Source: Octopus vulgaris
Lineage: Eukaryota
Length of the DNA stretch: 64,000 nt
NCBI GenBank assembly: GCA_951406725.2
Contig: OX597837.1
Span: 13,392,001-13,456,000 of the forward strand
Direction: 5' to 3'
Below the pieces are notes generated by a model. It saw nothing but the letters and a program-made list of their open reading frames with translations. It searched no databases and was not told the origin of the DNA. Shown piece after piece: positions 27,080 to 63,278 of this stretch; positions within the stretch are counted from its first letter, which is position 1, and each line of letters opens with the position of its first letter. The position numbers were made by a program, and so were the translations under genes.

Positions 27080-28012
27080 TCAGGATTGGTTGGACGATAA
27101 GGTATAAAGTGGGAACGTCTCTCCAGAAGAAGCTACTAAACTGACTGGATAGGGCGAAGCCCCTGTGGTGGCACAAGTAGAAATACTTTCCATTGGGGTC
27201 AACTCTATGCCTGATTCACATTTACTGGGTGTCATATAAGTTCTTGTAACCTTACTTGAAATGTGCCCTTGAGATGATCGTCTATGGGGTTCCGAGTTGG
27301 AACTGTCGTCCGTGTAACCTTTGCCACTCTGATTGATATTGGGTTTGCATTGTTTGATGTCCTCTTGCGAGAGATTGTAGTCTGTGACATCATCGTCTAA
27401 GATCTCAATTGGTTCAGTCTTGATGCCGCATTCAGAAGGAATGCCACTGACCGAACTGCTACCTTGTAGTGACATGGAAGAGGCTTGGGAAGTGGAAGGA
27501 AACTGATTTTGGTGAGAGGTTAAATAATTATGCTGCTCGTTAAGAGACTGAAGCCTCTCGTCGAGCAGCGAATTATGAACATCTTCCAGGTGAGAATGCG
27601 ACAATCCGACGTTCTGTTCTTGGTTGTCAAAAGTTACATCAGCAGGATTGGAATCGTCGCTCAATGTCAACACCACTGTTTGACGATTACTCTGTGACTT
27701 GGGAAGAGAATCTCGGTGACGGGGCGTCAACGTTGACGGGGAGCTGGTCATTTGCTTGTGTTCGTTTAGACTGGCAGCAAACTCTCGGCAGTGTTTCTGA
27801 ATTTTATCGACTTTTAAGAGATTAGATATTCGTTCGACATCCTTGTACAGATGTTCGTTAAGGTTAAGGACACCGTCGTAGAGAAAGCTGACAAAGATTT
27901 TCAGTCCGTCTTCGCTAATCCCTGGTGGAAGATTCACTTCCAAGTCAGCACCATCGGTAATATTTTTTTCCATCAAGTGAGGACTGGCAGCAAACAGAAC
28001 CAAACGATGTAA
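27080..28012 (-). CDS. BTB/POZ protein, constant exon C3 (rest of BTB domain plus disordered Ser/Gln-rich tail, stop)
   Basis: ttcttttccag|TTA CAT CGT TTG GTT = LHRLVLFAASPHL...GLKIFVSFLYDGVLNL...VERISNLLKVDKIQKHC (BTB hallmarks HRxVLxAxS, FLYxG, LxV..C). Phase 0 acceptor. No zinc fingers before the TGA. Confidence 0.9.
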   Translation of the reverse strand, partial: LHRLVLFAASPHLMEKNITDGADLEVNLPPGISEDGLKIFVSFLYDGVLNLNEHLYKDVERISNLLKVDKIQKHCREFAASLNEHKQMTSSPSTLTPRHRDSLPKSQSNRQTVVLTLSDDSNPADVTFDNQEQNVGLSHSHLEDVHNSLLDERLQSLNEQHNYLTSHQNQFPSTSQASSMSLQGSSSVSGIPSECGIKTEPIEILDDDVTDYNLSQEDIKQCKPNINQSGKGYTDDSSNSEPHRRSSQGHISSKVTRTYMTPSKCESGIELTPMESISTCATTGASPYPVSLVASSGETFPLYTLSSNQS

Positions 28013-28077
28013 CTGGAAAAGAAATTAATAACACTCCATAAGAAATACTGAAAATAATTAGTCATCTAGATCTATAG

Positions 28078-28705
28078 CAGTGGTTCTCAACTGGGGACGC
28101 TGTGTGCCTTGGGGACCCATTTAAGATTTTGTTGCTAAAAATTTATGTGCAATAAATTGGTTAGACTTCAGCAATACACAAAATATGTTGATTTTTTTTA
28201 ATACATTTTCTAATAATAATAATCATCATTTAACATCCGCTTTCCATGCTGACATGGGTTGGACAGTTTGACTGAGGACTGGTAAACCAGAAGGTTGCAC
28301 CAGGCTCCAATCTGATCCGGTAATGTTTCTACAGCTGGATGCCCTTCCTAATGCCAACCACTCAGAGTATAGTAGGTGCTTTTTACGTGCCACCAGCACA
28401 AGGGCCAATCAGGCAGCACTGGCATCGACCACACTCAAATGGTGCTTTTTACGTGCCACTGGCACCAACCACGTTCACATGGTGCATTTTATGTGCCACC
28501 GGCATGGGAGCCAGTCCAGTTGAACTGGCATCAACCACCCTCGAATGCTGCTTTTTACATGCCACTGGCATGAGAGCTTGTCATATTTAATTATAAAAAT
28601 ACAGTAAGTTTTTTTTTTTATGTACATCGAATACGTATGGGGGTCCAAGTTGAGTAAAATACGAATCAGAGGGGTCGATAAGTGAAAAATGGTTGGGAAC
28701 CACTG
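28078..28705. mobile_element. hAT-type MITE with nested SINE-like repeat, inside the intron splitting the BTB domain
   Basis: CAGTGGTTCTCAAC...GTTGGGAACCACTG with 8-bp TSD ATCTATAG/TTCTATAG. A related MITE lies at ~46765-47063. Confidence 0.75.
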
Positions 28706-28882
28706 TTCTATAGCATTTGAAATACAAATAGTAAGGCAAGCAGAGACCCCCTGAAATAATGAGTATGACCATGTGGACAGGGTTTCCAAGACAATTTTTT
28801 TTTTTTTACAAACAATAACAAAATTAAATTTCAGATAATCTTTAAAAGCAGAAAAATAATCAAATAAATAAAATATTCTTAC

Positions 28883-29033
28883 AGTCACATTTTTGTTTCC
28901 ACTACAAATTTTAGCATCACATAAACGCCGCTTCCTCCATAAACTTGCCAATGACTTCATCATCCCATCTGCGTGTTCTGGATCAACATAGGTTTTCTTG
29001 AAGACGGTTGCAGGGCGGGAAGAAGCGGAAAAG
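28883..29033 (-). CDS. BTB/POZ protein, constant exon C2 (start of BTB domain)
   Basis: tttgtatttaacag|C TTT TCC...AAT GTG ACT|gtaaga. Translates FSASSRPATVFKKTYVDPEHADGMMKSLASLWRKRRLCDAKICSGNKNVT (BTB N-terminal H...L..L.....LCD). Phase 2 in, phase 0 out. Confidence 0.88.
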
Positions 29034-29269
29034 CTGTTAAATACAAATGAGAGATTAACATGAATAGCATTGTCTATGTTTCCATCAGCACACACAGATC
29101 TCTATGTTAGTCACTGATTGTCCGTTTGTCTGTCCTTGTTTGTCCCCTCTGTGTTTAGCCCCTTGTGGGTAGTAAAGAAATATATATGTTAGTCACTGAT
29201 TTTACCTGTACTACAATGAATGCACACTTAATGCACTTGGCAATTTTGCTGCAAGTGGAACACTCAAAG

Positions 29270-29820
29270 ATTTGGAAGAGCAATACTTTGCATGGAATTC
29301 TGTTTTAAATTGAGAAAAAAATTTTATGGAGAATTTCCTAAAGCTGAAACGAGTCTACAGCAAGAATTGTTTGAAGCAGACACAGTGTCATGCGTGATGC
29401 CAGCGTTTAAAGTTGGGGAAAGCATGGACTAAAGATGACCTCAAATCTGGACAATCTTCTACAACAGACAACAATCACACTGAGAAAGTGATGAGCTGTG
29501 AAAAGTGTCACCTAACGATCCATGAGGTTTCTGAAGAAATAAGCAGCTGCAAAAATTCCAAGTTATGTGGTTTTAAAAGATGCATCTGTGTCATGTCCCC
29601 TGCCAGAGGAAGCAAAAGGAGAATTGAATCACAAGGAACTAAAAGCTGTTTGGTCCTTCAAATGTTGATGCAAGCTTTCACAAAAGCGTCATCACAAGAG
29701 AGCCTGTGGTTACAATGTCAAACTAACAAGACAAGCGATACGGTGGGGTTGGATCATCACCACAGCCAAAAAACATCATGTTGAGCTCACTCTAATATGG
29801 AAGTGGTCATGATAAGGTTT
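29270..29820 (+). pseudogene. Degenerate mariner transposase (HTH region)
   Basis: EQYFAWNSV/EFCFKL...FKVG...KDDLKSGQSSTT...CHLTIHEVSEE resembles the mariner N-terminus (EQR..IKFCFKLGK...F..G..S..DD.RSGRPSTS...RLTVRE.AEE). Stops and frameshifts. Confidence 0.65.
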
Positions 29821-30190
29821 TCGTGGGAAATACTGTGATAGGGATCACTTATACACCATGGGGAAGTGGGGAACTGGTCCTATGAGTCCTTGGACTGGAG
29901 ACATGTCCATAGGGTTGAAGATTGCTCCATCCACACAATATGGTAACGCTAGGAGACATAATAATAATCCTTTCTACTGTAGGCCTGCAATTTGTGGGGA
30001 GGGAGGAGCTAGTCGATTATACTGGCCCTGGTGAATAACTGGTACTTATTTCATTGACCCCAAAAGGATGAAACACAAAGTCAACCTTGGTGGAATTTGA
30101 ACTTAGAACATAAGGACGAAATGCCACTAAGCATTTTGCCCAGTGTGCTACCAGTTCTGCCAGTATGCTGCCTTAATAATAATAATAATA

Positions 30191-30232
<42 letters not shown>

Positions 30233-30239
30233 TTCTTAC

Positions 30240-30385
30240 CTTACAGACAAATCTTTTTCCTGATTTATTCTTATCTTGGAATTTTGGATTGTGTGCACTG
30301 GTTCTGGTTCGTAAGTCTCAACTTCAGGCTGACCAATAATAGCGCCAGTGGCTGCTGCTACAGCGGACTGAACCTCCATTGCCTC
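30240..30385 (-). CDS. BTB/POZ protein, constant exon C1 (shared phase-0 acceptor; internal ATG at 30379)
   Basis: ttgtttaatttacag|GAG GCA ATG GAG...TCT GTA AG|gtaaga. 146 nt open frame EAMEVQSAVAAATGAIIGQPEVETYEPEPVHTIQNSKIRINQEKDLSV. Its phase-2 end joins C2 (AG+C=Ser). Not in the supplied ORF track. Confidence 0.82.
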
Positions 30386-33300
30386 CTGTAAATTAAACAA
30401 ACAATCCAGTGAGAATACAGAAGAAAATCCACAAAAATAACATTGCTAAGGTCACCATCGTCCCCACGGTCATTTTCACATATTGTTGATTAGGGGTGGG
30501 CTAAGTTTGTGGTACAGCAGGACTTGATCCTTTGTTATTTCATCCAACCGATTCCATGTCAAAACTTCACATCTTGCACATTCGAGAATTTGTAGATGGC
30601 TCTGCAGTTTAAAAGCTTGCTCTAAAAACATGTGGTTTCGAGTTCAGTCCCACTGCACAGCACCTTGAACATGTGTCGTTTACTATAGCTGTAGAATGAC
30701 CAATGCCTTGTGCGTTGATTTGGTCAAGGGAAACTGTGTGGAAACCCATTGTGTATATACATGTGTGTGGTGGGGTGAGAGTGTGCTTGCCACCCTCACT
30801 GCATGACAGCTAGTGTTGGTTTGTTTACATCCCTATAACTCGGCAGTTTGGTAAAAGAGACGAACAAAAGTAAAAGACAAACGATCTAGTTGTTATCCAT
30901 CAACAGCATATGGTGGCACGTAAAAAGCACCACCTGATCGTGGCCGTTGCCAGCCTCGCCTGGCCTCCGTGCCGGTGGCACGTAAAAAGCATTATCCGAT
31001 CGTGGCCGTTTGCCAGCCTCGTCTGGCACCTGTGCCGGTGGCACGTAAAAAGCATTATCCGATCGTGGCCGTTTGCCAGCCTCGTCTGGCACCTGTGCCG
31101 GTGGCACGTAAAAAGCACCCACTACACTCACGGAGTGGTTGGCGTTAGGAAGGGCATCCAGCCGTAGAAACACTGCCAGATCAGACTGGAGCCTGGTGCA
31201 GCCTTCTGGCTTCCCAGACCCCAGTTGCACCGTCCAACCCATGCCAGCATGGGAAGCGGATGCTAAACGGTGATGATGATGATGATGTGCAGCCACCTCT
31301 CCATCAGCCAGTCCCATCATACCAAATCAGTCTTTTATGCCACAACAGATTTCCAGGCTGATCTCCCACAGTTAGAGCTCCATAAGTTTGATAAAGTAAA
31401 CAGTCAAACCATTGCAACTGCAATGAATCTGCAAATAGCTCCACACTTTTAGCAACAATCCAAAATGGCTCCAATTCCAACCAAGATATAAATAAACAAA
31501 AATATGAAAATCACAAACCTTAATACCTCAACCACCACTAATGATAACAGTAATAGAAATTTCTAACATAGGCGCACATGTGGTTTCAGGTTCAGTCCCA
31601 CACTGCAGCACCTTGGGCCAATGTCTTTTACTATAGCGCTAGGCCAACCAAAGCCATCTGAGTAGATTTGGTAGACAGAAACTGTAAGATGTGTGCTGTA
31701 CATCAGTGTGTGTGTGAGTTTGTGTCTCCTTGTTTTGACATCATATGTGAGTTGTAAACGAATGTCACTGTTATACAAGCAGTGTCATTCATTCTCAACA
31801 TTCTGCAAGAACATGTCTGGCTGTGAGGAAATCTTCCATTGCTTAAAAACAGTTGGCGGTTGGCAGCAGTTGAAAATCTGCCTCGATAAACTCTGTCCAA
31901 CCCATGCCAGCATAGAATGGTGAATGTTATGACGAACATAAATACAAACCCATCATCAAAAGGGAGGCAGGGTATAGTGAAGACGAATGATAAAACTCCC
32001 AAAAAGATATATGTGAATATGGAGAAAGCAAGAGGAAATGTCACAATACTCCTATATAATTCTGTCGTAGATATATTAAATAGGGCAATTATCCAGCCAA
32101 TTACAGAAAAATGTAATTAAAAAGTTCGACCAGCAGACAAGGTACAATCATGCTCTGTGATGTAGCAAATAGATTTGTGTACCTCCACTGGTGAAGACAA
32201 TTTGATCCTACTGAAGGGTAATATGCAGTAGTTGAATAACAACAAAAAAAAAGCAATTAAAAACATTCTGCGTCGGTTGATCTGGCTTAAAACAGGCACA
32301 GATTCCAAGGCATTGTTCTAACGAGAGTTATCTTCCCTTGCACCTAATTTGGAAAATGGTAAACACCATTGAAATTTCTTTTGTTCTTTAAATTTCTATT
32401 AAGACATCTTACCTTTTGGATCACTAAAAATCTTTTCATGGACCCTAGTCTGAGAAGCCCTTCAGCCACAAAATTGATTAACAATAAAACGTACTTTTGG
32501 CTTCCACCTTGAGAACAGACAAATGTGCTGCTTTGATTCATGGATGTCAACTTATGGTGCAAACATGGTGTTTTATATGTAAACTGATATATTATCTGCC
32601 TTATCCACAGTGAGTCATGTTTTGCTGCTTTTATTTGTTCACTAGTAATGCGGCTGATAACTTGAAGTAATTCCTAACCCTATCATCAGGTGTTAATCTA
32701 CCTGAAAACTGGTGTTAGAGGATTTAACAGTTGTGATTGTTGAGAATAAGTTCCTGACCATCAGAGAAAACAGTAGAAATAGTTACAAGTATCAGCAGAA
32801 ACAATGATTATCTGAGTGAATAGAGGAAAAGGGAATGCGTATGAGAGCTTAGTGATTTGACCATATAGGTCAATGGACTCTGCTGACCAAGTTAAAACTA
32901 TGGCTGTTGTATGAAGCACTGAGGAAACCAAACAAGAGCTTAGAGGTGGTTACATTACATGTTGTTCAGTGTATCAGAGTTTTTACTGAGGCTGATTTTC
33001 TATGGCTGGATAGCCAGCCTGTCACCAACCTTCACTTCCTTCTAAGTTAGATAATATTTACCCATGGCCAGATATGTTTTCACAGAATTTTGAGTACGAG
33101 TGGCACCGCTTGTATGACAGTGACACTCATTTACAACTAACATGCTATATCAAGACAAGGAGACACTAGCACACATACTGAATCCATTTACAAGGCATTG
33201 GTCAGTCTGTGCCTATAGCAGAAGACACTTGCTCAAGGTGCCTTACCATGGGACTGAGTCCAAGTAAAATAGCTTGGAGACCTACAAACCACAGGATCTA

Positions 33301-36282: not shown

Positions 36283-36483
36283 CAGTGCTTTTCAAACTTT
36301 TTGCTGGAGCGGAACCCCAAGGAAACATTCCACTGGCTCGAGGAACCCCTGTGCAATAATTTAATAGTCTTATGCACACATATCTGCACAGGAGAATTAA
36401 AAACTACTGCTGATTTTAGCAGTTTTGTAACTTCTTGCGGAACCCATAGACTGTACTGGCGGAACCCTGGTTGAAAACCACTG
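36283..36483. mobile_element. hAT-type MITE
   Basis: CAGTGCTTTTCAA...TTGAAAACCACTG with perfect 8-bp TSD GCCTAAAC; inserted in a SINE. Confidence 0.85.
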
Positions 36484-37414: not shown

Positions 37415-37484
<70 letters not shown>

Positions 37485-38101
37485 AATTTTGATTGAGTCA
37501 GTCCCTTCCTACTGAGTCTCGCCCGTGGGTGCACAGGGTCTTGGGGAAAATCATAGCTTGCCTGAAGAGCCTGTGTCCCTGCAGAGTAACAAGAGACCGA
37601 CTTGATCAAAATTGATATTTATATAATTCTACCCGCGGTACTTTCGCACCCGTACTCGTTATTTTCCCGTGTCTCTGTCATCTAACCGTCCTCAATTAAA
37701 TAATGGTGTTGTGTGTCGGGGATGTCGCAGTGCGGTGCCAGGTTCTCGATGAATCGAGTCGACACAAACCCAGTTTTGCTTACAAAACAGAATTGTTTCC
37801 ACTCCTTTAAAAACTGAAGCCTCAATAAACGACGATCGTTGTTTTGTATCCATTTGCACAAAATTTCAAACATTGCATAAAATGCTTTACAATAACCGAA
37901 ACCAGCTTCATTCAAACCTCGCCAGAATCGACGAGTTTTCAACTAAAGATCGATAAAACAAGAAGGATCGATTCAATAGACGTACTCCCTTTCCCTTATA
38001 AAATATAGATTTGTTTAATTAAATTTCTATCGTTAATAAACCAAGAGTTTCTGTCGGTTTAACATAAATTTGGGGGAAAAAAGGAAGTTAAAAAAACTCA
38101 C

Positions 38102-38200
38102 CTAAGTTTGGATAGACAGAGCTAGATAGACATTTTGCTCTTGTTCTATGAAAATAACACCAGGAAATCGAATTTCTGAAGGGTTCTAAGGTCAGTATTA
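38102..38200 (-). other. Candidate non-coding alternative first exon (V0) of the BTB gene
   Basis: Consensus donor CTTAG|GTGAGT at 38102/38101 in a repeat-free, CpG-containing stretch with ATCGATA (DRE-like) motifs near 37950 and 38226. The 5' boundary is a guess. Confidence 0.4.
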
Positions 38201-39363: not shown

Positions 39364-40671
39364 CTGTCGGTTTAGAGCAATTTCACTCAAATTAGGCAGG
39401 TGGGGGAAAGTATTGTCAGTATCGGTCTGTACCATTGACACACGCAGGCCAGACGGGTGTGGGCTGTAATTCATAGAACCCGCATTCGTATCGTGGGTCG
39501 CCTGCATTTCGTGGGACGACAGGGTGTTTAGGCCAGATATTGAACTGATACCGGGCAAAGCGAGCGACTGAGATGGTGTCGTCAGAGAGCTGCTGGTACC
39601 TTGTTGGGGGTCGAACTGAAATGCATCGAACACCTGAAAGAGGACGAACTTGGCTGTTGCACGGATGCAGTGGTTTGTGTAGACCCGGGAGAGTTTGGCC
39701 GTAAGCGCTATCCTTTTCATCATCGTGGACAAAGCTTCTTTTCCGAGTGGAGATGCATTATACCAGATGGAGTCCTGGAAGGATGTGGTCCGAGGATGCT
39801 GGAACAGAGCTAACTCGTGCGGGTTTCGCTTCCGCAGGTAGCGCTCGAACGTGGCCACTGGGCACACGGCATTACCTGTAGCATACATTCTCGCACTGCG
39901 ACTGGAGTCTGGGGACAACGGGGAGCTGTTCGATTCGATGCTACATCCGTTGGTGTACTGAGACAATGATTTCCGTTTGTAGACGTATTTTCGACCATAT
40001 TCGTCGGTACCAAAGCCAAAATGGTGAGGGGTGAGATAGCGCTGGTTCTCCTGTCCCCGACGAAAGAAATAAAATGTAATTTCAAACCAGACCTTGTTGA
40101 GGAGGCCTTCTGGTGTGTTGGGGTTAAACACCTGACTGTGGGAATAGAGAGTAGCCATGTCAGCCTGGCTGATCGGCTCTTTGTGTTCGATCGACCCTTT
40201 GCCAGCTTCTTTCAGTCGCTTCAAAGCCACTTTAAACGACATGTTCGATTTACGGAATGCCGGGTCGTTGACGATGTTCACAGTTTTCAGGTAACGGTTT
40301 AGTCCATGGCGAAGTGCAACCAACGAGGAAAAACTATAGAACTGGCCGCCTTGTGTACGGACGTTGATGTAGAAATCAGAGAGCAGTTCATCCAACTCAC
40401 TCTTGGCCATATCTTCAATGGCAGTATTGATACCACGGCTATGGCAGAAGTCACGGAATATTTTCGCGCTGTACTTGGTGGCTTCTTTGGTTTTTTTGCT
40501 GTCATACTGATGGGGTTCTTTCGATGGTGGAGGCATGACCAATAGAGGGACATCTTCGTGAATAACTCCAGCCGATTGTAAAGGAATGTTAGTGCTAGCA
40601 AGCAGAGAGTTTGCAGTAGAAGTGCACGGCGGAGGAGTCGGCGACGACGAGTCTAGTGGATTGGAAGCCAT
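39364..40671 (-). CDS. Variable first exon V1: Crypton-derived tyrosine-recombinase-fold (DUF3504-like) domain
   Basis: ATG at 40671 (MASNPLDSS), 436 codons to AAC CGA CAG|gtaagt. Motifs FYINVRTQGGQFYSFSSLVALRHGLNRYL, TPEGLLNKVWF, FRRGQENQR, CPVATFERYL, WYNASPLGK, YTNHCIRAT are typical of Crypton/KCTD1/ZMYM/QRICH1 DUF3504. Confidence 0.85.
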
Positions 40672-40699
40672 TAGTAACCTTCTTCCGCACGGCACTACG

Positions 40700-41050
40700 T
40701 TCTAGTAGCGTGACGTCACGGCAACATAGATGCGTAGTGAGCACTACGAGAAGACATAGTGCCCCAACACTATAGAAGCCAAATAAATATTACAGATTTA
40801 TATAAAAGTTGCACGGATTTTTTCCCTCCTTGTAAATTTTTCGCACGGCTATATATTTCCGGGAATACTCTGCTTATACGTTGTTGAAAGAAAGCAAAGA
40901 AGCAAATTAATAGTCGATAGCACCTCTCCCACTATCTCTCTCAGTCTATCATACACATCACTATATCCTTATATGTTGCTGACCGCTTCACTCACAAAAG
41001 AAAAAAAATATATAAGATTAGTCCGCCGTGACGATAGAATGGCGGCCCAA
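40700..41050 (-). promoter_or_regulatory. Putative promoter of V1
   Basis: Perfect 12-bp palindrome CGTGACGTCACG (CRE core TGACGTCA) at 40709-40720, ~40 nt upstream of the ATG. YY1-like AATGGCGG at 41038-41045. Locally CpG-rich. No polypyrimidine acceptor before the ORF. Confidence 0.5.
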
Positions 41051-41563: not shown

Positions 41564-42604
41564 CACACATATATATAAATACACACACACACCTATATAT
41601 ATATATGTTTATGTATGCGTATGTATATATAAATGCACAGGTATACGTACGGCTCTGTGTGTGTGTGTGTGCATATATAGACAGATTAATATTGCCTCTA
41701 TATTGTGTGCGCGCGCGATTGTGTATATCACTATAGGGAAATGGTTAATTGGGACTTCGAAGCTTCGGCTTACTCATCAGATTGTCAGCCACAACTTCGA
41801 AGTTACTCTCAACATTTTCCTTCCTGAAATTAAAAATTATATATATATACATATATATATACATATATACATATACATATATATATACATATATACATAT
41901 ATATATATATACATATATATATACATATATACATATATATATATATACATATATACACATATATACATATACATATATACATATATATATATACATATAT
42001 ACATATACATATATATATATACATATACATATATATATACATATATACATATACATATATATATATACATATATACATATATACATATATATATATACAT
42101 ATATACATATATACATATATATATATACATATACATATATATATACATATATATATATATATACATATATACATATATACATATATATATATACATATAT
42201 ACATATATACATATATATATACATATATATATATACATATATATATACATATATATATATACATATACATATATACATATATATATATACATATACATAT
42301 ATATATATATACATATACATACATATACATATATATATATATACATATACATATATATATATATATACATATATACATATACATATATATATATATATAC
42401 ATATATACATATACATATATACATATATATACATACATATATATATATACATATACATATATACATATATATACATATACATATATATATATATATACAT
42501 ATATACATATATATATATATACATATATACATATATATATATACATATACATATATACATATATATATATATACATATATACATATATATATATATACAT
42601 ATAC

Positions 42605-42651
<47 letters not shown>

Positions 42652-42692
42652 CATATACATATATATATATATACATATACATATATATATAC

Positions 42693-42724
<32 letters not shown>

Positions 42725-42967
42725 ATATATACATATACATATATATATATATACATACATATATACATATATATATATACATATACATATATACATATAT
42801 ATATATACATATACATATATACATATATATATATACATATACATATATACATATATATATATACATATATATATATACATATATACATATATATATATAC
42901 ATATACATATATACATATATATATACATATACACATATACATATACATATATATATATATATATATT
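41330..42967. repeat. Compound (TA)n/(TACA)n/(CATATA)n microsatellite field
   Basis: ~1.13 kb pure tract at 41838-42967 plus a looser tract at 41330-41640; source of the spurious IY/YI ORFs. Confidence 0.97.
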
Positions 42968-45595: not shown

Positions 45596-47217
45596 TAGTG
45601 CTTCGTTGCTGGTGATATCAACAAGAAAAAGCACTCCATCCAGTGAGAGAGATAAATATTTTAATATACACAGGATTTAAATGCGAGTTACTATCAGTTT
45701 CATGTCTCTGAAAATACGAAATAACAGTGTGTGTTAGTGTAAGTGTGAGCTTACACATCTATCTAATGATGAAGACACACTGGTGCTAATCTCCACACAC
45801 ATACATACATACATACAAGAGTGGGAGAAGCGATATAGAACAGGATTTTGCTCCAACTTGTTCATCCTTAATCGAGCTCATTTGCCTGTCTCTCTCAAGC
45901 CTTGCATCCACACACAACAATAAGAGCCTGCTGATAGAATGGTAGTAGTCTTCAGTAGAAACTCCTAACTTTATATAGTGCCGCCACGCTTAGTCTCTTC
46001 TCACACCCATCGTATCACACAATCTGCATTATTATTATCATCATCATAACTAATCGATAACAGATTATTTAATCTATCACAAGACATCGAACTACTCTTG
46101 AATATTATTAGAATGTTCTTTTGTTTTTTTATCTCCTTTCTTTCTTTCTTTCCAGATTATAGTTGGACATCAAATACTACCACTGTTTTAGAACACGGAA
46201 CTATATTCGCTATTCGAAGCCTCGAGACACGAAAGCTAAATTAATCGAAACTTCGAAACCTGCATTTTCGTCTCAAGAACTATATTTTGGTTCGCTTCCT
46301 TGTAGTTTCAGTATTTTTGTTGTTATTTCAACCCCCATTCAGCACTGATCGCACACAAAAGGATTTAAACAGCTATAACCGTCTCATTCGCCCCTAATTC
46401 AGCTTATCTAGGACTACCATTATCCAGGACTATTTTATGAGTGAAGTTTTACTGCTATTTCTAGCAGGTGAAGTGCAATATTGAGACTCCCTCGTTGGCT
46501 AACTAGAAATAACAGCTAACTTAAACTCATATCACATCCCACTGCCTTTAAAACGACCAAGGAAAAGTGTTGCACAGTGTAGTCCCAAATACACTGTATC
46601 TGTCCCGGGGTAATTTTTTTTTTCTTTTTAAAGAGACGATTATCCTTAACTGAAAGGTTTTCCACCAGGCACTGGCAATCTGAAATGCCGCGCCTAACCA
46701 CAAATTACCTTCAACTTTTTTTTTTCTTTCTGTTAATAGTGTGGCCCGCCTGATAAATAATGTGTAGTGGTTCACAACCAGGGTCCATTATAAAATTTTG
46801 GGAGATCCATGCAGCAAAATACGAAATTGTACTTTAAGGGCCCTTGAAAAACATTTTGATCTAGATGTATGTATTGTTAGAGCTAGGTTCTTTCTCTACC
46901 TAGTTCAAACTACGAAATTAATGAGTGAAAAACAAAGTAGGAATTTTAAAAGAAGTTTCTATAAAACTAGTTCTTTAATCATCGGAAGGCAACGGGGGTC
47001 CACCAAAATAAAATATCAATCAAGGGGATCCATAGATTTTTAAAAAATGGTTGACAACCCTTGAGTTATGTATCTCATATGGCCCACTTCTCGAAAATGG
47101 TACCCAGTATTTTGACTGCCAGTCAATTTCACCCCCCGATGTTAGGAAAAAATAAAACGTTGAATAAAGAGATACAATAAAAAGCCAAATCGACTGAGCG
47201 ATTGGAGGGTCACTTAC

Positions 47218-47607
47218 TTTTGCTTGACGCCAGTTCCTGATATTGCGACTTACATGCGAAGAGGGAGGCATGAGAGCCATTTCCTTGTCATCAAGCTTTT
47301 CACGAATGGTCGCAATTAACGAACGGGAAGATTCCTGGGAAGCGGCTGCTTGGGCCTTCAGGTCCGCCAAAGTTTTGCGAACTTTGGGCACGGAAGCACA
47401 CGAACTATGAAGATGTTCACCAACGCGCTTCACTATGGTATAATCTTCGTCGTGTGTCATGGTGTGGACTCGGGCTTTACAGGACCTAATTTCGCATTTC
47501 CAGTAAGTCTTAGATCCATCGGAATTTTTTTTCTGTGTTTCATATATGTAATTCATGTTATCCACAAGTTTCTTCCCTCCGCGGATGCTGTTAAATACGT
47601 GAGGCAT
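47218..47607 (-). CDS. Variable first exon V2: FLYWCH zinc finger (N-terminus of a MULE-type transposase)
   Basis: gcaccATG at 47607, 130 codons to CAA GCA AAA|gtaagt. SIRGGKKLVDNMNYIY...TYWKCEIRSCKARVHT...VGEHLH is a FLYWCH pattern, followed by the helical linker (LMPPSSHVSRNIRNWR) seen in FLYWCH-MULE transposases. No DDE domain. Confidence 0.85.
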
Positions 47608-47701: not shown

Positions 47702-47782
47702 GGAGTGAAATTACCGGAAGTGAAACTGACTGGCAGTCAAATTACCGGAGTCAAAATACCGGAAGTGAAATTACCTAGAATC
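47702..47782 (-). repeat. 15-bp tandem subrepeats containing CCGGAAGTG; probable Mutator/Phantom-type terminal repeat serving as V2 promoter
   Basis: About five units of GGA(A)GTGAAATTACC ending ...CTAGAATCC, ~95-175 nt upstream of the V2 ATG. Two ETS-type CCGGAAGTG sites. Confidence 0.55.
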
Positions 47783-51396: not shown

Positions 51397-51439
51397 GAAC
51401 AATCAAAATCAAATCATATATCAGAAAGCAGGGGTTAAG

Positions 51440-52839: not shown

Positions 52840-53063
52840 AGCTGGCAGACGCGTTAGCACGCCGGGCGAAATGCTTAACTGTATTTCGTCTGCCGTTACG
52901 TTCTGAGTTCAAATTCTGCCGAGGTCGACTTTACTTTTCATCCTTTCGGGGTCGATAAATTAAGTACCAGTTGCGCACTGGGGTCGAGGTAATCGACTTA
53001 ATACCTTTGTCTGTCCTTGTTTGTCTCCTCTATGTTTAGCCCCTTGTGGGTAGTAAAGAAATA
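52840..53063 (+). mobile_element. tRNA-derived SINE with 14-bp target-site duplication, inserted in an old LINE relic (~52380-53280)
   Basis: TATAATAGCCTCTG at 52826-52839 and 53064-53077. Body AGCTGGCAGA...GAGTTCAAATTCTGCCGAGGTCGACTT...GGGGTCGATAAATTAAGTACCAG recurs at ~540-745(-), 2130-2335(-), 10680-10830, 29965-30175(-), 35835-36052, 56070-56250(-), 60955-61145. Confidence 0.85.
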
Positions 53064-54013: not shown

Positions 54014-54574
54014 CTTCCCATACTTGATATCAGCGATAGTCGCGATTTGTTGACTGGCATCCCAGTTAATTCCAGGTAGGTAGGACGAAGATTCATAGGC
54101 GGAGATTAAGTTAGCGGCAACAACTTCTGTCTTGATGGCATGTTCCAACTGTAGAGACGTGCTGCTGGTAAGGGCACTTTGCTGGTCATCTTGGAATTTT
54201 AACGGAAGCCCGTCAATGTTCGGGGCTTTCAGTAAACGCCTCGCGGGTTTCGGTAATCTCTTCAAAGAACTCGCCGTCGACCTGTTACGTATGGAAGGCC
54301 GATCGTTGCTGTGATTGTGGTTCTCCCTAAACGATATTAGCTCTTGTTTGTTCGACATGACAGCGCTAGAGAGACAGCCCAGTGTTTTACACTTCCAGTA
54401 AATTCTGTCTTTGCGTTTATAGTTAAGACGAAAGAGATAGCCATTTAAGGCCAAGAGTTGTCCGCCTCTCGTCGTCACGACCAGTTCGTACTCCGGCTGG
54501 CGCGGTTTGAATGTCTGCCTTTTTTTATTTAGCTTATAATCGTGGTTAACATTGAGAAACGAATCGTTCGCCAT
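54014..54574 (-). CDS. Variable first exon V3: FLYWCH zinc finger plus linker
   Basis: attATGG at 54574, 187 codons to TAT GGG AAG|gtatgt. TTRGGQLLALNGYLFRLNYKRKDRIYWKCKTLGCLSSAV...ENHNH is a FLYWCH pattern. The ORF becomes intron-like immediately after the donor. Confidence 0.85.
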
Positions 54575-56290
54575 AATGACAACACCTCTGTAGCAAATGC
54601 TTCGGCAGAGATGTAAATAAACTAAATATATATTCTCCTGTGCTGTATATTCAACGACAGTATACGCAAGACACTGATACGTTACGCAAATCGAGCAGAC
54701 ATTCGAAACAAGTAAAACTTGAAGGCGAATAAGGCAAAATTAGGACAAGGCGAAAAACAACAAAAAGCAGGCGAAACGACTAGCTTTGCTGAAATGTTAA
54801 TGGAAAAAAATGTACTTTTACCAGATAAATTCAAACTGATATATTACAAACTATCAGCCTTAGTTTCCTATTTGTCAACAACAAATACAAACAGCGAGCA
54901 TCAATTTATTTCTATGCTGCATAATGATTTATACGGAGTTTTATGAAACTACCATAGTACAGTTATGTTAATCTGTAAAGGCACTACAAAAGTAAGACTG
55001 GGCAAGACGGAACGAAACTTAATTTTTATATCTCTGTTTTTTTCGTTTTTGCTGCAGCATACCTACACAAGTGTGCCCCCTTCCTCACGATATTGTTTCT
55101 CCCATAACTTTTAGAAAAGTGAATGGATTTTAATGAAATTTTCAACAGATATCTTACAGATGGTGCATATTACGATTATATCAGAATTTAAAGGGAAAAA
55201 GAATGCTGGGCGCACACACACAAACATGCTAACACATCACATCTATCTTCAAAATAAAATTTGAAAAAAGTATGTGGTGCGTGTGAACACTGTACGTACG
55301 TACGCCCATCCTTATTTTTATTAATTTTTTTTTTTTTACACATTAAACTCCAATATAATTGGTATCAACACTGTCTGAAAGATATCTGTAGAAAATCTCA
55401 TTTAAAAATATCAATTTCTCTGAAAGTTATAAAGAAACAAAGTCGTGGAAAGCACACTTGTTTCGTATGTCGCTTTTTCTATGGTTTATGCGAGAGCGTT
55501 CTTACGATCTAGGTTTCCATTGCAGTTATTTCGGTAAAGTTCATTAATGCTTCGGGGAAGGGATGATTTCCAAATACATTATGTTCCCTACATCCCTGCT
55601 AATGCTATGAGGATAGCATTTAATTGATAATTTTAATACAGAACGGTTGAGCCATTGTTTTGTTACACTAGTAATTCAAATAAAATTATTAAGTTTTATT
55701 AACTCTGAAAGGCACAAAAAGAAAATGACTCTCCCCAGACACAACAGAATATGCTTCAACACACGAACTCACATAAAGAATCTTGCAAACCAAATCCAAA
55801 AACGAAATATTATTACTAGAATGTACGGATTTCCTTTTTAAATATGCAAGATAAAACAAAAAAATAATAAAGAAACTATAGAACAAAAAATTTAGTTTAA
55901 AAATCGAATTTTAAAAAAGAAATTTTCACCTGGTGTCTGAATGGAACAGAAGTTTGGTTGGGTTCTTGTTTCACAACTGCTTCAAGCTACAAAGAGAAAA
56001 AATTTGAACAAAAATTCATTTGAACAATAGGAGATCAGCATTTAGTAAGAATATAATATAAAATATTGATTTCAAAATTTTGGCACAAGGCCAGCAATTT
56101 CCGGGGATTACATCGACCTTAGTTCTCAACTGGTATTTATTTTATCGATCCTGAAGGATGAAAGGCAAAGTGGAACTCAGAATGTAAAATCGGAAGGAAT
56201 GCTGCTAAGAATTTTGTCCGGCGCGGTAACGGTTCTGCCAGCTCGCCGACTTGAAGTACAATATGAAATATTGATTTTGAGGTAGAGATA

Positions 56291-57805
56291 TAGGTTGAAA
56301 TCCCTTATCCGAAATTCCTAAAGATTTCGGAATATTTTTATACTTGCATCCATGAAATAGGACACCTTGGGGGATGGGACCCAAGTCTAAACACAATATC
56401 CACTTACATCTTATATTATATATATATTTTTTTATCCTTTTGCTTGTTTCAGTCATATGACTGCAACCAGGACTTTTTTTTTCAAACTCTAGTACTTATT
56501 CTATTGCTCTCCTTTGCCGAATTGCTAGGTTACGAGGATGTAAACACACCAGCACCGGTTGTCAAGCGGTGGTAGGGGACAAATACAAACACAATGACGT
56601 GCACACACACACATATATATATATACACACACACACAATGAGCCTCTTTCAGTTTCCGTCTACCAAGTCCTCTCACAAGGCTTTGGTCGGCCCGAAGCTA
56701 TAGTAGAAGGTACTAGCCAAAGGTACCGCGCAGTGGGACTGAACCCGGAACCATGTGGTTGGGAAGTAGGCTTCTTACCACACCCCCACGCTTAACACTA
56801 GAACAGTAAGATATCCGTTTCGATGTCATGTTTTGATTAAAAGATTACACTACATGTACGCCATTTGTATTTCATTCTTTGCTCTACGGATATTGGGTTT
56901 AATGTAAGATATAAACATTTTTAAAAAGCCAAAGCATTGAACATGATTACAGGTAAATAAAATGAAAACTGAAAAAGTCAACATAGCATTTTAAAAAAAA
57001 GCAATGTACAAATAACGATGTTAGTCATGTTATACTTATACACGGATGTGAAATTCGGGTCTAAAATAAGAATCACATTTTGGGCTTACTGTTTTTAAAG
57101 ATTTAATGCCGTGCCTTTTCCTAAATTTTTGCAACCAGTCTGCAGAATATTCACAGCTACCCCCAATTTTCAGTTTGTTATGATAGATTTTTGCCTGTTT
57201 CGTGATCAGCAATGCATTAAGCGGGATGTGTTTACTCTGGCACTGACGAATCCATTCCATTAGAACACGATCGTGATTTTCAGTTTTCGCTCTATGTAAT
57301 TTTTTCCTGTACTTCATCAAGCTTTGATCATCGCTTTCTTCATAGAACTGTCTTTTCAGGTCGTAGACAGTCGTTGTTCCGACACCAAACTCCTCCGCCA
57401 GTTGCTTCACACTTACACCGCTCTCAAGTTTTTTCAACAACTTAACTTTCTGCATTATAGTTAGACATAGATGTTTTCTCTTTTCACGATTACCCATGTG
57501 GGTATTTCCAGGCCTTTTCGACATTTCCGACATCTTCTTCTCGTCACAGGGCACAAAACAGGCGGCAATCACAAGTAACGAGCGAAGGTGTCACTCTGAT
57601 GGCTGCTAACAAACTTCCAACTGAACTTTGGACGATAAAACTGCACCCAGGGTAGGTGAGGTCACATACGATAACGGCACACAACATCTGCACTTGGTGG
57701 AACTTTCCTAGCACTTTGTAGAATATTCTATTTGAGGTATGTCATGTTAGAATCCACAAAAAAACTTTCGGATTTGGGAATTTCGGATAAAGGATTTTCA
57801 GCATG
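56291..57805 (-). mobile_element. Internally deleted Tigger/pogo (Tigger4/Zombi, Jerky-like) DNA transposon carrying V4; SINE nested at ~56430-56790
   Basis: TA|TAGGTTGAAATCCCTTATCCGAAATTCC at 56291 and its inverse GGAATTTCGGATAAAGGATTTTCAGCATG|TA ending at 57805. Internal GGGGATGGGACCCAAGTCTAAACAC resembles Tigger4-type subterminal sequence (from memory). DDE region absent. Confidence 0.75.
57090..57533 (-). CDS. Variable first exon V4: CENP-B N-terminal HTH (psq-type) + HTH_Tnp_Tc5, Jerky/TIGD-like
   Basis: ATG at 57533 (second ATG 57524), 148 codons to TTA AAA ACA|gtaagc. KRKHLCLTIMQKVKLLKKLESGVSVKQLAEEFGVGTTTVYDLK...SADWLQKFRKRHGIK. The donor falls right after the second HTH. Confidence 0.8.
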
Positions 57806-59354
57806 TATAGTCGATTAAATTGACCCCAGTAGTATGTAGTAGAATTTCAACGTCCACGATGCTTTCGCCGTGGGAGGTAGACAGTAATACCTTTATTTCT
57901 TGGATACTACAATAAATCAAACGAAATGTGTTGACATACAAGTTGTCTTGGTCTGTGATATAAATTACATTGTTAGAGAAGGGCTTCTAGAACTGAGTGC
58001 CCATAGTAACATCAACCATACAGTTACTAAGGCAGGTAAAGATGTGTGGAGATGTGAACTGTAATATATTCCACATCTCTATATTTCAGCCGCCTAAAAT
58101 CTTCAACGTCACTTTCCAAGTTTTTCTCACGAACACAACTTCGGCAAGTTTTCACTTATTATAGAAGAAATACAAGTAAAGTTTGCTATTTTATTTGAAG
58201 GTATTTTTTTAAAATGCAGTAAAAACTATCATCGCATCTCTTTCGATTAACTCCTCATTAACTCTCAGTCCAAGACAAAATAAAAGCTTGAAGGGTAACA
58301 CAGGAGATTTTACTCTGAAATATATTTTAGCCGAGATGTGTGCCTTGCCGATGGAAGTTTGGGGCGAATAACGAACCATGTTAGAAAGAGAACATCTCAA
58401 ATTTTTATCATTCCCCCCCCCCCTTTTTTACTAATTAAGACTATGAGTTTTATTTCACCCCAATTATCATAGCATAACTGAAGTGAAATACCTTTCTTAC
58501 AATGCTATAACCATGCAGCATTATAATTCGAATTATGTACATAACAATTTTATAACAGTCCCCAAAACTACCACAATATTAAATAATACCCTTTATCAAT
58601 ACTTTAAATTTCAGCAGGCAACCATCCACCCTCTGCCATATAGACAATTTTTTTGTGTGTATTGTTACAATACCCGCGTTCAACAGTGTTAAATAAAGTT
58701 AGTTTTACATTCGTTTAGCGTTGCAATGTCAGAATTAGATTAAAATCTATGTGCAATGGTGTTAAATATATATATAAAAAAAGACAATTACAGTTGTTTG
58801 TTATTGTGATGCCCCTTACCAGATTAGAACCCACGATCAATGATGTTAAAGTTAAGATGCATCCGTTTATATTTACAGTACCCCTATATATATACACACA
58901 CAATGGGCTTCTTTCAGTTTCCGTCTACCAAGTCCTCTCACAAGGCTTTGGTCGGCCCGAAGCTATAGTATAAGGTACTAGCCAAAGGTACCGCGCAGTG
59001 GGATTGAACCCGGAACCATGTGGTTGGGAAGTAGGCTTCTTACCACACCCCCACGCTTAACATTAGAACAGTAAGATATCCGTTTCGATGTCATGTTTTG
59101 ATTAAAAGATAACACTACATGTACGCCATTTGTATTTCATTCTTTGCTCTACGGATATTGGGTTTAATGTAAGATATAAACATTTTTAAAAAGCCAAAGC
59201 ATTGAACATGATTACAGGTAAATAAAATGAAAACTGAAAAAGTCAACATAGCATTTTAAAAAAAAGCAATGTACAAATAACGATGTTAGTCATGTTATAC
59301 TTATACACGGATGTGAAATTCGGGTCTAAAATAAGAATCACATTTTGGGCTTAC

Positions 59355-59813
59355 TGTTTTCAAAGATTTAATGCCGTGCCTTTTCCTAAATTTTTGCAAC
59401 CAGCCTGCAGAATATTCACAGCTACCCCTAATTTTCAGTTTGTTATGATAGATTTTTGCCTGTTTCGTGATCAGCAATGCATTAAGCGGGATGTGTTTAC
59501 TCTGGCACTGACGAATCCATTCCATTAGAACACGATCGTGATCTTCATTTTTCGTTCTATGTAATTTTTTCCTGTACTTCATCAAGCTTTGGTCATCGCT
59601 TTCTTCATAGAACTTCAACAGTTTGTCCTTTTGTTTCTTCAGGTCGTAGACAGTCGTTGTTCCCACACCAAACTCCTCGGTCAATTGCTTCACACTTACA
59701 CCGCTCTCAAGTTTTTTCAACAACTTAACTTTCTGCGTTATAGTTAGACATAGATGTTTTCTCTTTTTCCTTTCACGATTACCCATGTGGGTATTTCCAG
59801 GCCTTTTCGGCAT
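59355..59813 (-). CDS. Variable first exon V5: paralogue of V4 (CENP-B/Jerky-like double HTH)
   Basis: gaaATG at 59813, 153 codons to TTG AAA ACA|gtaagc. Same domain as V4, with intact KKQKDKLLKFY and SAGWLQKFRKRHGIK. Confidence 0.82.
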
Positions 59814-62289
59814 TTCCGACAATATCTTCTTCACGTCACAGGGCACAAAACAGGCGGCAATCACAAGTAACGAGCGAAGGTGTCACTGTGATGGCTGCTA
59901 ACAAACTGCCGTCAAACGGGCAACTGATGACGGGAAAACTACGCCCGAGGTAAGTGATGTCACGTGCCATAACGGCACACAACATCTGCACTTGGTGGAA
60001 TTTTCCTAGCACTCTGTAGAATATTCTATTTGAGGTATGTCTTGTTAACATTCACACAAAAAACTTTCGGATTTGGGGTGTTTTCGGATTTGGGAATTTC
60101 GGATAAAGGATTTTCAGCATGTATAGTCGATTAAATCGACCCCAGTAGTATGTGACTGATACTCCCTAATCAAGGAAGATGAAAAGTAAAGGCACTTTCG
60201 GTAGAATATAAATTTTTAAAGATACTTTTACTACAGCAATGTACTTCCGTCCGCCACTCTACCAATCCAAAAGTTAGGATTATTTCAGGTTGTTGGTAGA
60301 ATGAAAAACAGAGTTTTTTCAAGAAAATGCAGTTTTATGAAAATGTTTGGCCCGAGGTTTGGAAAGTGAAAAAAAAAAATCGTGAACACTCGAGGTCGCT
60401 ACAACAGCTAAATTTCCCGTTACTGAGGATCTCTCTTAATAATCCCACATACTTAATACACCAAAGACTACAGAACAAAAAATATCCTTTCCCTTTAGGG
60501 CCCGAAAATACTCGAGTCCCCAACAACTAACTTTCTACGAGGCCCGTGTGAGATCCAGAATGAAGTACCGCATTAAAAAAAAAAAGGCCACTCGACAAAA
60601 CCTGATATGAATTCGCTCATCATCTCTCCAAACTTCGGTGTCAAAGCATGTTGCCTCCTCTCAGTCATTTCTACTATTAGAGAGGCTTCTGCTTCTTTGA
60701 ATAAGTTGGTTTTGTGTCACTTCTACTCCAACACCATAGATTCGTCCATTCTCCCTCACGCCACCGCAGGCCAGTACGATCTTAGGAGCATTTATCGGGC
60801 CCGGGAAAATCAATGCACAGCTGTGAGCACTGAGTGACAGCATACAAGCGAGGTTTAAACTATTGGGGGATCGTAATAAATCTAGATAACCACAAATTCA
60901 ATAATTTTATCAAACGCAAACAACTCATGAGACCTATACTTCAAAATGTTTCAGTATATACACGGTATTTTGTCCGCCGTTATATTCTAAGTTCAAATTC
61001 TGCCGATGTCGACTTTGCCTTTCATCGTTTCGGGGTCGATAAATTTAGTACCAGTTACGCACAAGGGTCGATGTAATCGACTTAATCCCTTTGTATGCCC
61101 TTATTTGTCCCCTCTATGTTTAGCTCCCTGTGGGCAATAAAGAAATATATATATATATACACTTAACCTATTCGAATATATTCGGGATATTCGATTTAAA
61201 TCCTAAACCAACGTCACCTCCATCTTCTCAAAAGACTGCAGACTCAGGAAACTCTCTCTCCTCCCTTTCTATGTTCCTACAATGCATTAACCTCCCAAAT
61301 TTCAACGTCCACGATGCTTTCGCCGTGGGAGGTAGACAGTAATACCTTTATTTCTTGGATACTACAATAAATCAAACGAAATGTGTTGACATACAAGTTG
61401 TCTTGGTCTGTGATATAAATTACATTGTTAGAGAAGGGCTTCTAGAACTGAGTGCCCATAGTAACATCAACCATACAGTTACTAAGGCAGGTAAAGATGT
61501 GTGGAGATGTGAACTGTAATATATTCCACATCTCTATATTTCAGCCGCCTAAAATCTTCAATGTGACTTTCCAAGTTTTTCTTCGGCAAGTTTTCACTTA
61601 TTATAGAAGAAATACAAGTAAAGTTTGCTATTTTATTTGAAGGTATTTTTTTAAAATGCAATAAAAACTATCATCGTATCTCTTTACATTAACAGTCTCA
61701 GGCCAAGACAAAATAAAAGCTTGAAATAAAAGATTTTACTCTGAAATATATTTTAGCCGAGATGTGTGCCTTGCCGATGGAAGTTTGGGGCGAATAACGA
61801 ACCATGTTAGAAAGAGAACATCTCAAATTTTTATAACTTTTTCCTTTTTACTAATTAACACCATGACTTTTATTTCACAACATAGCATAACTTAAGTGAA
61901 ATACCTTTCTTACAATGCTATAACCATGCAGCATTATAATTCGAATTATGTACATAACAATTTTATAACAGTCCCCAAAACTACCACAATATTAAATAAT
62001 ACCCTTTATCAATACTTTAAATTTCAGCAGGCAACCATCTACCCTCTGCCATATAGACAATTTTTTTGTGTGTATTGTTACAATACCCGCGTTCAACAGT
62101 GTTAAATAAAGTTAGTTTTACATTCGTTTAGCGTTGCAATGTCAGAATTATGTTAGAATCTATGTGCAATGGTGTTAAATATATATATAAAAAAAGACAA
62201 TTACAGTTGTTTGTTATTGTGATGCCCCTTACCAGATTAGAACCCTCGATCAATGATGTGAAAGTTAGATGCACCCGTTTATATCTACA

Positions 62290-62646
62290 GTACCCCTATT
62301 CGTGTTAATCCATGTTTAATAGCGTTAAATAAGTTATATATATATTTGTTTAATGTTAGACTGACCCCAGTCGGATTAGAACCGACGTTTAATGGTGTTA
62401 AAATTTTTTTTAAATGTAATATACATTTGGTTATCGTTACAGTGTACCCCATTCGGGGTGGACCCCACGTTTAATAGCGTTAAATAAATAAAGTTATATA
62501 TATTTATTTAACGTTACACTGACCCCAGCCGGATTAGAACCGACGTTTAATGGTGTTAAATTTTTTTTTTAATGTAATATACATCTGGTTATCGGTGCAA
62601 TGTGCCCCATTCGGGGTGGGCCCCGCGTTTAATGGTGTTAAATAAA
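62290..62646. repeat. ~157-bp tandem repeat (about 2.3 units) built from GGATTAGAACC / CCCCATTCGGGG subunits
   Basis: Units start near 62290, 62444 and 62602; related degenerate subunits at 62140-62270. Confidence 0.75.
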
Positions 62647-62693
62647 GAGCAGAACAGAAAGAGAGTCCAGGGGAGACAAATATATAAACTTAC

Positions 62694-63278
62694 ATTTTCC
62701 ATCACCAAGTCCTCACTTTTCAATATCCTCAACATAAACAAATCCGACTGCGACTGGTCATTCTTGTCGTTCCATCGACCCGTCGCCGGATTTGCTGACT
62801 TCACTGGACTCTTGTTGAATCTGGCCTTACTACAATGGTTCTTGTAATTTCCATGTCTGCGACTACTGCACCTCGGACACAGAGAAATATAGATTTTTAT
62901 GGCTTCGGCCGTCACATTGGCATATAATTGACGGGTGATGTTCTGCATTCTGTTGATACCAGCATGGGAATGAGTTAAGTGAACAGCTTTCAGGGCTCGG
63001 AATAAATCCTCGTCGGCGATGTAAGGACGAACGGATTCCGAGTCTCTTCGTCTTCTTCTCTTAATTAGTTTGGTTCCTTGATCATTGGTGACCAAATCAA
63101 AACGGCGAGTTACATTGTATTCTTCCCCAGTCCAAGCGGTTTTCTTGTCCCAAGCCCCTTTCAAAATGAGCAGGTATTTGTTGTATTGTTCCTTTGTCAT
63201 GCTAACTACATTTTTACCTATTTTCTCATTTTTCTTCACTCTCCACGTTCTCAAGAATTCTTCTTCGGACGTCAACAT
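62694..63278 (-). CDS. Variable first exon V6: Ginger/KRBA2/SCAND3-like N-terminal region with integrase H2C2 zinc-binding motif
   Basis: atcATG at 63278, 195 codons to ATG GAA AAT|gtaagt. YIADEDLFRALKAVHLTHSHAGINRMQNITRQLYANVTAEAIKIYISLCPRC has the H-x4-H...C-x2-C pattern of KRBA2-like integrases. The rve catalytic core is absent. Confidence 0.8.

Follow-up and report, generated by a model that had tools for sequence, protein, structure and literature searches.

Candidate transposon-derived first exons upstream of a constant BTB region in Octopus vulgaris

We analysed a 64,000-nucleotide window of the 2.8-Gb Octopus vulgaris genome (contig C24:13392001-13456000; coordinates below are window positions unless a contig is given) that contains a gene for a BTB-domain protein. 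Six open reading frames (ORFs) on the minus strand, each followed by a phase-0 splice donor, all lie upstream of three exons encoding the BTB region; the former are denoted V1-V6 and the latter C1-C3. We read the locus, with a probability of about 0.7, as one gene with nested alternative 5' ends, in which transposon-derived N-termini are spliced to a constant BTB. The evidence is good for two of its isoforms and makes a further three probable. From their sequence, the V ORFs are candidate first exons, and the parts of the locus are as follows.

Constant exon C3: 27080..28012, minus strand; C-terminal part of the BTB, low-complexity tail and stop; 933 nucleotides (nt)
Constant exon C2: 28883..29033, minus strand; N-terminal BTB extension and first helices; 151 nt
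Constant exon C1: 30240..30385, minus strand; phase-0 acceptor at 30385, starts E-A-M; 146 nt
V1 coding exon: 39364..40671, minus strand; Crypton-derived DUF3504 with a weak QRICH1 match; 436 amino acids (aa)
V1 leader: 40672..40769, minus strand; palindrome GTGACGTCAC at 40719, candidate acceptor at 40769
V2 coding exon: 47218..47607, minus strand; FLYWCH, 130 aa, alternative donor at 47254
Inverted-repeat arms around V2: 47085-47132 and 47720-47767; 75% complementary
V3 coding exon: 54014..54574, minus strand; FLYWCH, 187 aa, one genome copy
Linker exon L: 55930..55986, minus strand; 57 nt, phase 0/0, between V6 and C1 in RefSeq isoform X2
V4: 57090..57533, minus strand; pogo/CENP-B-type fragment, duplicate of V5
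V5 coding exon: 59355..59813, minus strand; CENP-B_N and HTH_Tnp_Tc5, 153 aa
V6 coding exon: 62694..63278, minus strand; Integrase_H2C2-type zinc-binding domain, 195 aa, one genome copy
Local duplication: 56620..62299; 56620-57837 matches 58885-60153 (92%, contains V4/V5) and 57843-58887 matches 61298-62299 (93%)

Isoforms represented by database models

The donor contexts of all six V ORFs, the acceptor of phase 0 at 30385 and the in-frame union of C1, C2 and C3 into 409 aa were reproduced exactly as given in an initial annotation of this DNA. Pfam matches in the V ORFs are DUF3504 in V1 (7e-11), FLYWCH in V2 and V3 (1e-7 and 7e-12, respectively), CENP-B_N with HTH_Tnp_Tc5 in V4 and V5, and, under the cut-off, Integrase_H2C2 in V6 (0.0014). 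The BTB match lies in exon C3, which is 100% identical to XP_029650370.1 over residues 314-623 and also matches XP_029650369.1 at its end.

The product of V1-C1-C2-C3, 845 aa, is XP_029650369.1 / CAI9739953.1, annotated in O. sinensis and O. vulgaris. V1-BTB proteins also occur in O. bimaculoides, Argonauta and Sepia, and V1 is 81-98% identical across the octopus, argonaut and cuttlefish proteins. Complete V1-C ORFs are present on Logan contigs, one 862-aa form on 36 of them; none of these exceeds 4.5 kb, which is too short to contain the introns. Ahead of the V1 ATG, the non-coding stretch 40672-40720 is conserved with Sepia and contains the palindrome GTGACGTCAC, which we take to be CRE-like (cAMP response element). 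The translation of this leader corresponds to an upstream extension of the Sepia model, and octopus carries a stop there. DUF3504 proteins are described as having lost the recombinase catalytic tyrosine (PMC3212892). V1 has an A at the H-x-x-R motif site in a loose comparison, on which we base no catalytic claim.

V6-BTB corresponds to O. sinensis RefSeq isoform X2 (XP_029650370.1, 623 aa), which consists of V6, 19 further residues and C1-C3. These extra residues are encoded by a 57-nt exon of phase 0/0 at 55986-55930, whose acceptor is rich in pyrimidines, and the same V6-L joint is found in the O. vulgaris model CAI9739955.1. The claim of the initial annotation that every V exon joins 30385 directly therefore fails for V6 and presumably for V4 and V5, which lie between V6 and L and are likely to be spliced through it. 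Its product lengths (845, 539, 596, 557, 562 and 604 aa) are arithmetically right, but the V6 product is really 623 aa and those of V4 and V5 are probably 576 and 581 aa. UniRef names the V6-L model 'KRAB-A domain-containing protein 2-like'; we presume the label Ginger/GIN for V6. In ESM Atlas, V6 falls at 0.91 among clusters of the Integrase_H2C2 type, 14-33% of whose members carry the family, which serves as a lead only. V1 and V6 may each bind DNA. Another N-terminus, of 21 aa, is joined to C1 in the Logan protein P0029.

These proteins bear on an altogether different reading, in which a BTB gene lying upstream would use the V ORFs as its variable terminal exons at the 3' end, and the locus would be an ordinary lola-like one misread. 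Among related BTB proteins there are indeed 11 groups, described below, in which an N-terminal BTB is kept and the C-termini vary, and the initial annotation had named terminal V exons as one case that would overturn it. We regard this as extremely improbable: the V1-C and V6-L-C proteins place V before the BTB, conservation ends at the donors rather than at stop codons, a genome-wide BTB search places no BTB within megabases upstream on contig C24, and no BTB-like long ORF occurs in the 200 kb beyond the window.

The BTB occupies residues 294-392 of the 623-aa isoform, behind the variable part. PF00651 is the only BTB family matched there at E<=0.01, with no match to the T1/KCTD type, and the closest solved relatives are gigaxonin, BACH1 and BCL6. 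A Pfam scan of the same isoform finds no BACK, Kelch or zinc finger behind the BTB, so that the BACK domain expected after the BTB of a KLHL/Cul3 adaptor is absent from it. The FxLRWN motif of arthropod TTK-type domains is likewise absent from the C1-C3 translation, read directly. Modelled as a homodimer (with residues 72-212 of the orthologue P0029), the BTB scored 0.84 against 0.00 for the best of three controls, with a contact agreement of at least 94% and a pLDDT of 88, and the predicted interface includes an N-terminal strand (residues 80-87). The mark for this score is reached by 21/30 solved pairs (7/16 for animals) and by 0/23 single chains, and the pass possibly reflects memory of solved BTB dimers. 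In the preferred reading, the products have a dimerising BTB and a disordered tail in common and differ in their targeting domain. Since the BTB is common to all, isoforms could form heterodimers that combine two targeting domains. The products are probably homo- or heterodimeric transcription or chromatin regulators, and their heterodimerisation, DNA binding and repressive action are inferred.

Origin, conservation and use of V2 to V5

Comparison with dispersed relatives shows a transposon origin for V2 and V5. V2 is an internally deleted Mutator-type element between inverted repeats that has lost its catalytic domain. Its homology to five dispersed family copies stops 33 nt past the donor and is picked up again in the arm on the right, and the donor position is common to all five (GTAA in 5/5, GTAAG in 3/5). 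A second phase-0 donor, at 47254, outscores that at 47218. The family has at least 100 genome matches; V2 is open, and six of its seven best relatives outside the locus carry stops. V5 aligns with dispersed pogo fossils up to 2 nt short of its donor, a point reached by six of the eight copies compared, and V5 too is open while six of its eight best outside relatives, from a family of at least 126 genome matches, carry stops. Fragments of pogo type approximately 70% identical to V5 are found in rodent models of 'small integral membrane protein 8 isoform X1' (P0033-P0045), and a lemur 'jerky homolog' is similarly close (~70%); this pogo family is widespread, and rodents have likewise acquired it as a 5' exon. 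V4 is a tandem duplicate of V5 (92% DNA identity over 1.27 kb) with two in-frame deletions of 6 and 18 nt, and is possibly decaying. The six exons thus represent five independent captures, which is where the proposal of transposon-derived N-termini on one BTB needs amending; its substance is borne out by the V1 and V6 database proteins and by isoforms of a sister locus (see below). A search for inverted repeats near V1, V3, V5 and V6 gave no convincing pair.

The orthologues of V2 in O. bimaculoides (91% identity) and of V3 and V5 in another octopod (93% and 85%) are intact, and V3 retains approximately 100 residues beyond its FLYWCH domain. Identity to the orthologue is much higher before the donor than after it: 0.98 versus 0.38 for V1, 0.91 versus 0.48 for V2, 0.93 versus 0.68 for V3, 0.85 versus 0.47 for V5 and 0.91 versus 0.53 for V6. 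All five pairs thus show the drop (Fisher p from 4e-9 to 1e-3). The V ORFs also stand out from their surroundings. Among the other Met-started ORFs of at least 60 aa at 30.4-64 kb (17 on each strand, leaving aside those in one short V3-V4 stretch), 1/34 was Pfam-positive, a plus-strand PHD ORF beside a fragment resembling a long interspersed element (LINE). Over the following 80 kb upstream, all 38 minus-strand ORFs were Pfam-negative, and no further V exon was found among ORFs of at least 130 aa in the 200 kb upstream. The chance of a phase-0 donor-like hexamer following the domain in five independent ORFs is approximately 1e-4 (3e-6 if strand is included, and ~5e-4 without V2), a rough figure that is flattered by the post hoc choice of hexamers and by the inherited donor of V2.

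Several observations weigh against splicing of all V exons to the BTB. Splice support at the locus comes from database models, taken as annotated, and from Logan contigs. No V2-, V3-, V4- or V5-BTB protein was present among the results and cluster members read from protein searches with exon C3 and the V exons, and the V2, V3 and V5 orthologues found are unspliced read-through forms. An exact look-up of the six V translations in a protein collection returned 0/6, and a look-up of the V3 stretch in sequencing runs listed none of RNA, an outcome that counts neither way. The donor of V2 was inherited from its transposon family and is therefore no sign of selection, that of V4/V5 is weak (score 1.5), and frameshifts in the tails also depress identity past the donors. 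The sole model found that uses the V2 donor, O. vulgaris CAI9739954.1, joins it to the acceptor at 40769 and reaches a stop before V1.

Such points would fit a locus in which V1 and V6, and perhaps V3, are the only exons in use, with V2, V4 and V5 being intronic relics, or stand-alone or nonsense transcripts, that are in sense orientation by chance. The missing spliced V2-V5 records, the retention by V2 of both inverted repeats, the deletions in V4 and the annotation of V2 as a read-through gene in O. bimaculoides all agree with this. We nonetheless think it unlikely. V2, V3 and V5 are intact in other octopods with identity falling past the donor, and family homology ends at the donor (V5) or 33 nt beyond it (V2); V3 is single-copy and conserved well past its domain, and the sister locus uses such ORFs by the dozen. 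We infer from these patterns that V2, V3 and V5 are spliced to the BTB.

How the isoforms are selected is a separate question. Each V exon would have its own promoter in the preferred reading of nested 5' ends. The observed/expected CpG ratio at the V starts is 0.82-1.33, where the median is 0.43, and ranks between the 85th and 99th percentiles among 527 windows, but large coding exons are similarly CpG-rich (88th percentile for exon C3, 83rd for an exon of the neighbouring TBC gene), making this weak promoter evidence and a further point on the negative side. Alternatively, one upstream non-coding leader, or trans-splicing as at mod(mdg4) and lola, could feed mutually exclusive V exons. In favour of such a scheme, candidate acceptors precede V1 (at 40769, which one model uses) and V3 (at 54788), with more distant ones for V4 and V5. 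None passed near V2 or V6, in a scan that is insensitive, as it missed the true C1 acceptor. Selection by splicing nevertheless seems quite improbable, since the parts are colinear on one strand and cis-splicing is enough; the cDNA starts of the sister-locus isoforms differ from one another by eye, and donors there match the closest constant exon downstream, as nested promoters would predict.

The nested 5' ends probably arose as follows. DNA transposons would insert in sense orientation upstream of the BTB gene or in its first intron, and each remnant would lose its catalytic part while keeping a start codon, a domain at the N-terminus that binds DNA or zinc, and a cryptic donor of phase 0. 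Transcripts would begin at or near each remnant and be spliced to the next constant exon downstream, giving V1, V2 and V3 joined to C1, and V4, V5 and V6 joined to C1 through L. Only cassettes in frame with the nearest constant exon would persist.

Around these exons, the V1-C1 intron contains a CpG-rich, mostly single-copy stretch without a Pfam-positive ORF (37480-38050), which could be the promoter of a BTB-only isoform beginning at a Met in C1. Between V1 and V2 lies a 1.1-kb TA-rich microsatellite (41838-42966), a source of spurious long ORFs. The terminal exon of a RabGAP-TBC gene (15545-17992, plus strand) converges on the 3' end of the BTB gene, and a plus-strand ORF ~141 kb from the window start, upstream of the BTB gene, presumably resembles a PP6 regulatory subunit.

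A sister locus on contig C3 and the wider BTB family

The locus is not a one-off. The genome-wide BTB family search identified 11 tandem minus-strand BTB exons at contig C3:148983332-149172606, and contig C3:149171539-149350349 contains, within ~178 kb, at least 24 transposon-derived variable ORFs, three nested linker exons and one BTB. Upstream of the last BTB, 24/27 minus-strand ORFs carry Pfam domains of the kind seen in variable exons (from 200 kb examined, the 27 being hand-picked from 54 listed): 10 THAP, three DUF3504, three CENP-B, three Tc1/mariner-type HTH, two BrkDBD and one each of Psq, FLYWCH and zf-C17orf113. None of the 27 plus-strand ORFs has such a domain, two of them matching helicase or reverse transcriptase. 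The phase of the best donor equals that of the next constant acceptor in 22/24 ORFs, or strictly 21/24, as one match requires the domain end to be placed six residues early. Phase 1 is found in 4/5 ORFs ahead of the phase-1 linker and in 1/19 elsewhere (Fisher p=0.002; the donor matrix is approximate, and several best scores are weak). The isoform protein P0168 spans 178 kb, starting at 149350349 and running through each of the three linkers before it reaches the BTB. Some of the THAP exons stop short of the last histidine, which is supplied by the linker beginning H-F-V-G-G. At least one downstream BTB copy on this contig has its own FLYWCH 5' exon (149160713, P0143).

The orthologous gene of O. 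bimaculoides, LOC106877732, is represented in the supplement to PMC10027918 by at least 11 RefSeq accessions whose N-termini are of THAP, Psq or CENP-B type and whose BTB C-terminus is one and the same; these isoforms confirm the splicing. The paper lists them as separate factors from a 'BTB/POZ transposon', with no remark on their common gene, and the words 'isoform', 'alternative' and 'promoter' do not appear in its main text. This gene shares its architecture and BTB subfamily with the window locus, and is far larger, with its 24 or more variable ORFs, ~178 kb and three linker exons.

Further relatives vary in layout. At contig C3:151.25-151.38 Mb (plus strand), three THAP matches and one CENP-B-like match lie close to a trio of BTB exons in what is probably another cluster. 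A BTB at contig C2:173.12-173.16 Mb has an internal intron at the same place as the window gene, and upstream on the same strand a 514-aa DUF3504 ORF, behind which no clear donor was found, and a THAP ORF. Of the 31 THAP matches in the genome, 15 precede a BTB of this subfamily on its own strand (intervening genes being unchecked for contig C3:151.3 Mb). The closest paralogue, on contig C11 (70% BTB identity), is an eight-exon gene with no V array in the ORF listing for the 80 kb upstream; only its last exon has a copy, with a stop codon, at contig C10:34401995-34403023. Another paralogue, at C24:25.66 Mb, is a single THAP-C2H2-BTB gene with no array in ~50 kb.

Among 147 BTB relatives, four pairs have a common C-terminus and different N-termini, and 11 groups have a common N-terminal BTB and different C-termini (P0074-P0128 and related). 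In the scanned groups of the latter kind the C-termini include CENP-B, DDE and zf-Tnp; these are lola-like loci with a BTB that does not look like TTK. The subfamily has therefore been used in both orientations, their order not being given by the BTB tree (a quick method on 121 columns, with deep forks open). Two proteins, P0140 with THAP and P0141 with FLYWCH, share one BTB C-terminus that is 28% identical to the window orthologue and have the H-F-V-G-G linker, and by this comparison the cassette layout may be older than cephalopods. For P0140, ESM Atlas returned only low-score BTB clusters. The cassette layout is a family trait, of which the window locus is a small member and the locus on contig C3 the better object of study.

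Relation to known systems and significance

The locus resembles Drosophila mod(mdg4) and lola in that one constant BTB is combined with many alternative DNA-binding exons, including FLYWCH (PMC11426971). It differs in its reversed order (variable 5', constant 3'), its internal BTB without FxLRWN, its variable exons from unrelated transposon families and its colinear parts on one strand, which make trans-splicing unnecessary. The description of an inverted mod(mdg4)/lola thus holds for the pairing of one BTB with several alternative predicted DNA-binding domains, two N-termini being in RefSeq here, and breaks down on the constant N-terminal BTB and variable 3' exons that define those genes. The octopus locus works like an inverted lola/mod(mdg4) and is not a member of that family.

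Insertion of a Crypton ahead of a BTB gene gave rise to the vertebrate KCTD1b variant, with its single-exon N-terminal DUF3504 (PMC3212892). KCTD1 isoform b therefore resembles V1-C in having an N-terminal DUF3504 and a C-terminal BTB, with a single captured exon. The BTB of KCTD1 is of the T1/KCTD type, whereas that of octopus is PF00651 and gigaxonin/BACH1/BCL6-like; the likeness is thus convergent and the name 'KCTD1_15' on a Sepia protein misleading.

Host-transposase fusions, in which a transposase DNA-binding domain is spliced to a regulatory domain using transposon-supplied splice sites, have been described (bioRxiv 10.1101/2020.05.07.082677). The acceptor lay upstream of the transposase in 8/9 of the cases traced by Cosby et al., and the term BTB is absent from the main text (10.1101/2020.05.07.082677). 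The octopus proteins likewise unite transposase-derived and host domains in frame (DUF3504 with BTB, and Integrase_H2C2, sub-cut-off, with BTB), and the splice site is transposon-supplied for V2, while the V5 family alignment ends 2 nt before the donor. They differ in that the transposon provides the start and the donor and that one host gene has made from five to more than 20 captures.

Vertebrate protocadherin alpha/gamma and UGT1A genes have many variable first exons and common constant 3' exons. Several 5' coding exons leading to common constant exons are also seen here, for V1 and V6 in database models. In the vertebrate clusters the variable exons are paralogues in tandem, all of a single exon, whereas the octopus exons are unrelated insertions, with V4/V5 alone duplicated, and use nested linker exons. 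The initial annotation knew of no description of this architecture, and none was found in full-text searches, most subscription papers being outside their coverage, although the isoforms themselves are in RefSeq and among the separate factors of PMC10027918. PMC12111275 contains nothing on the cassette layout.

Captures of differing age stand side by side at this locus, from V1, common to cuttlefish, to V2 with its inverted repeats and the recent V4/V5 duplicate, so that one can test directly how transposons give rise to transcription factors. Such factors are hidden in annotation as isoforms of an 'uncharacterized protein', and given the number of THAP matches upstream of co-oriented BTBs, gene-level counts and expression tables may merge dozens of factors into few genes. 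Tentatively, these could be cephalopod, and possibly wider, 'transposon-trap' BTB loci, in which a constant dimerising BTB recruits the promoter and DNA-binding exon of new DNA transposons. The result would be a renewable, combinatorial library of heterodimers chosen by promoter, in which young exons such as V2 and V5 would aim the BTB at the ends of their own families. If so, the action of V2 and V5 would be a functional parallel of KRAB zinc-finger repression, and cell-specific promoter choice could diversify cells as protocadherin promoters do. The cassette layout itself would be an undescribed route to a larger transcription-factor repertoire, in which one host domain is serially fitted with unrelated transposon DNA-binding exons, and it shows a convergence with arthropod lola and mod(mdg4) in the opposite orientation.

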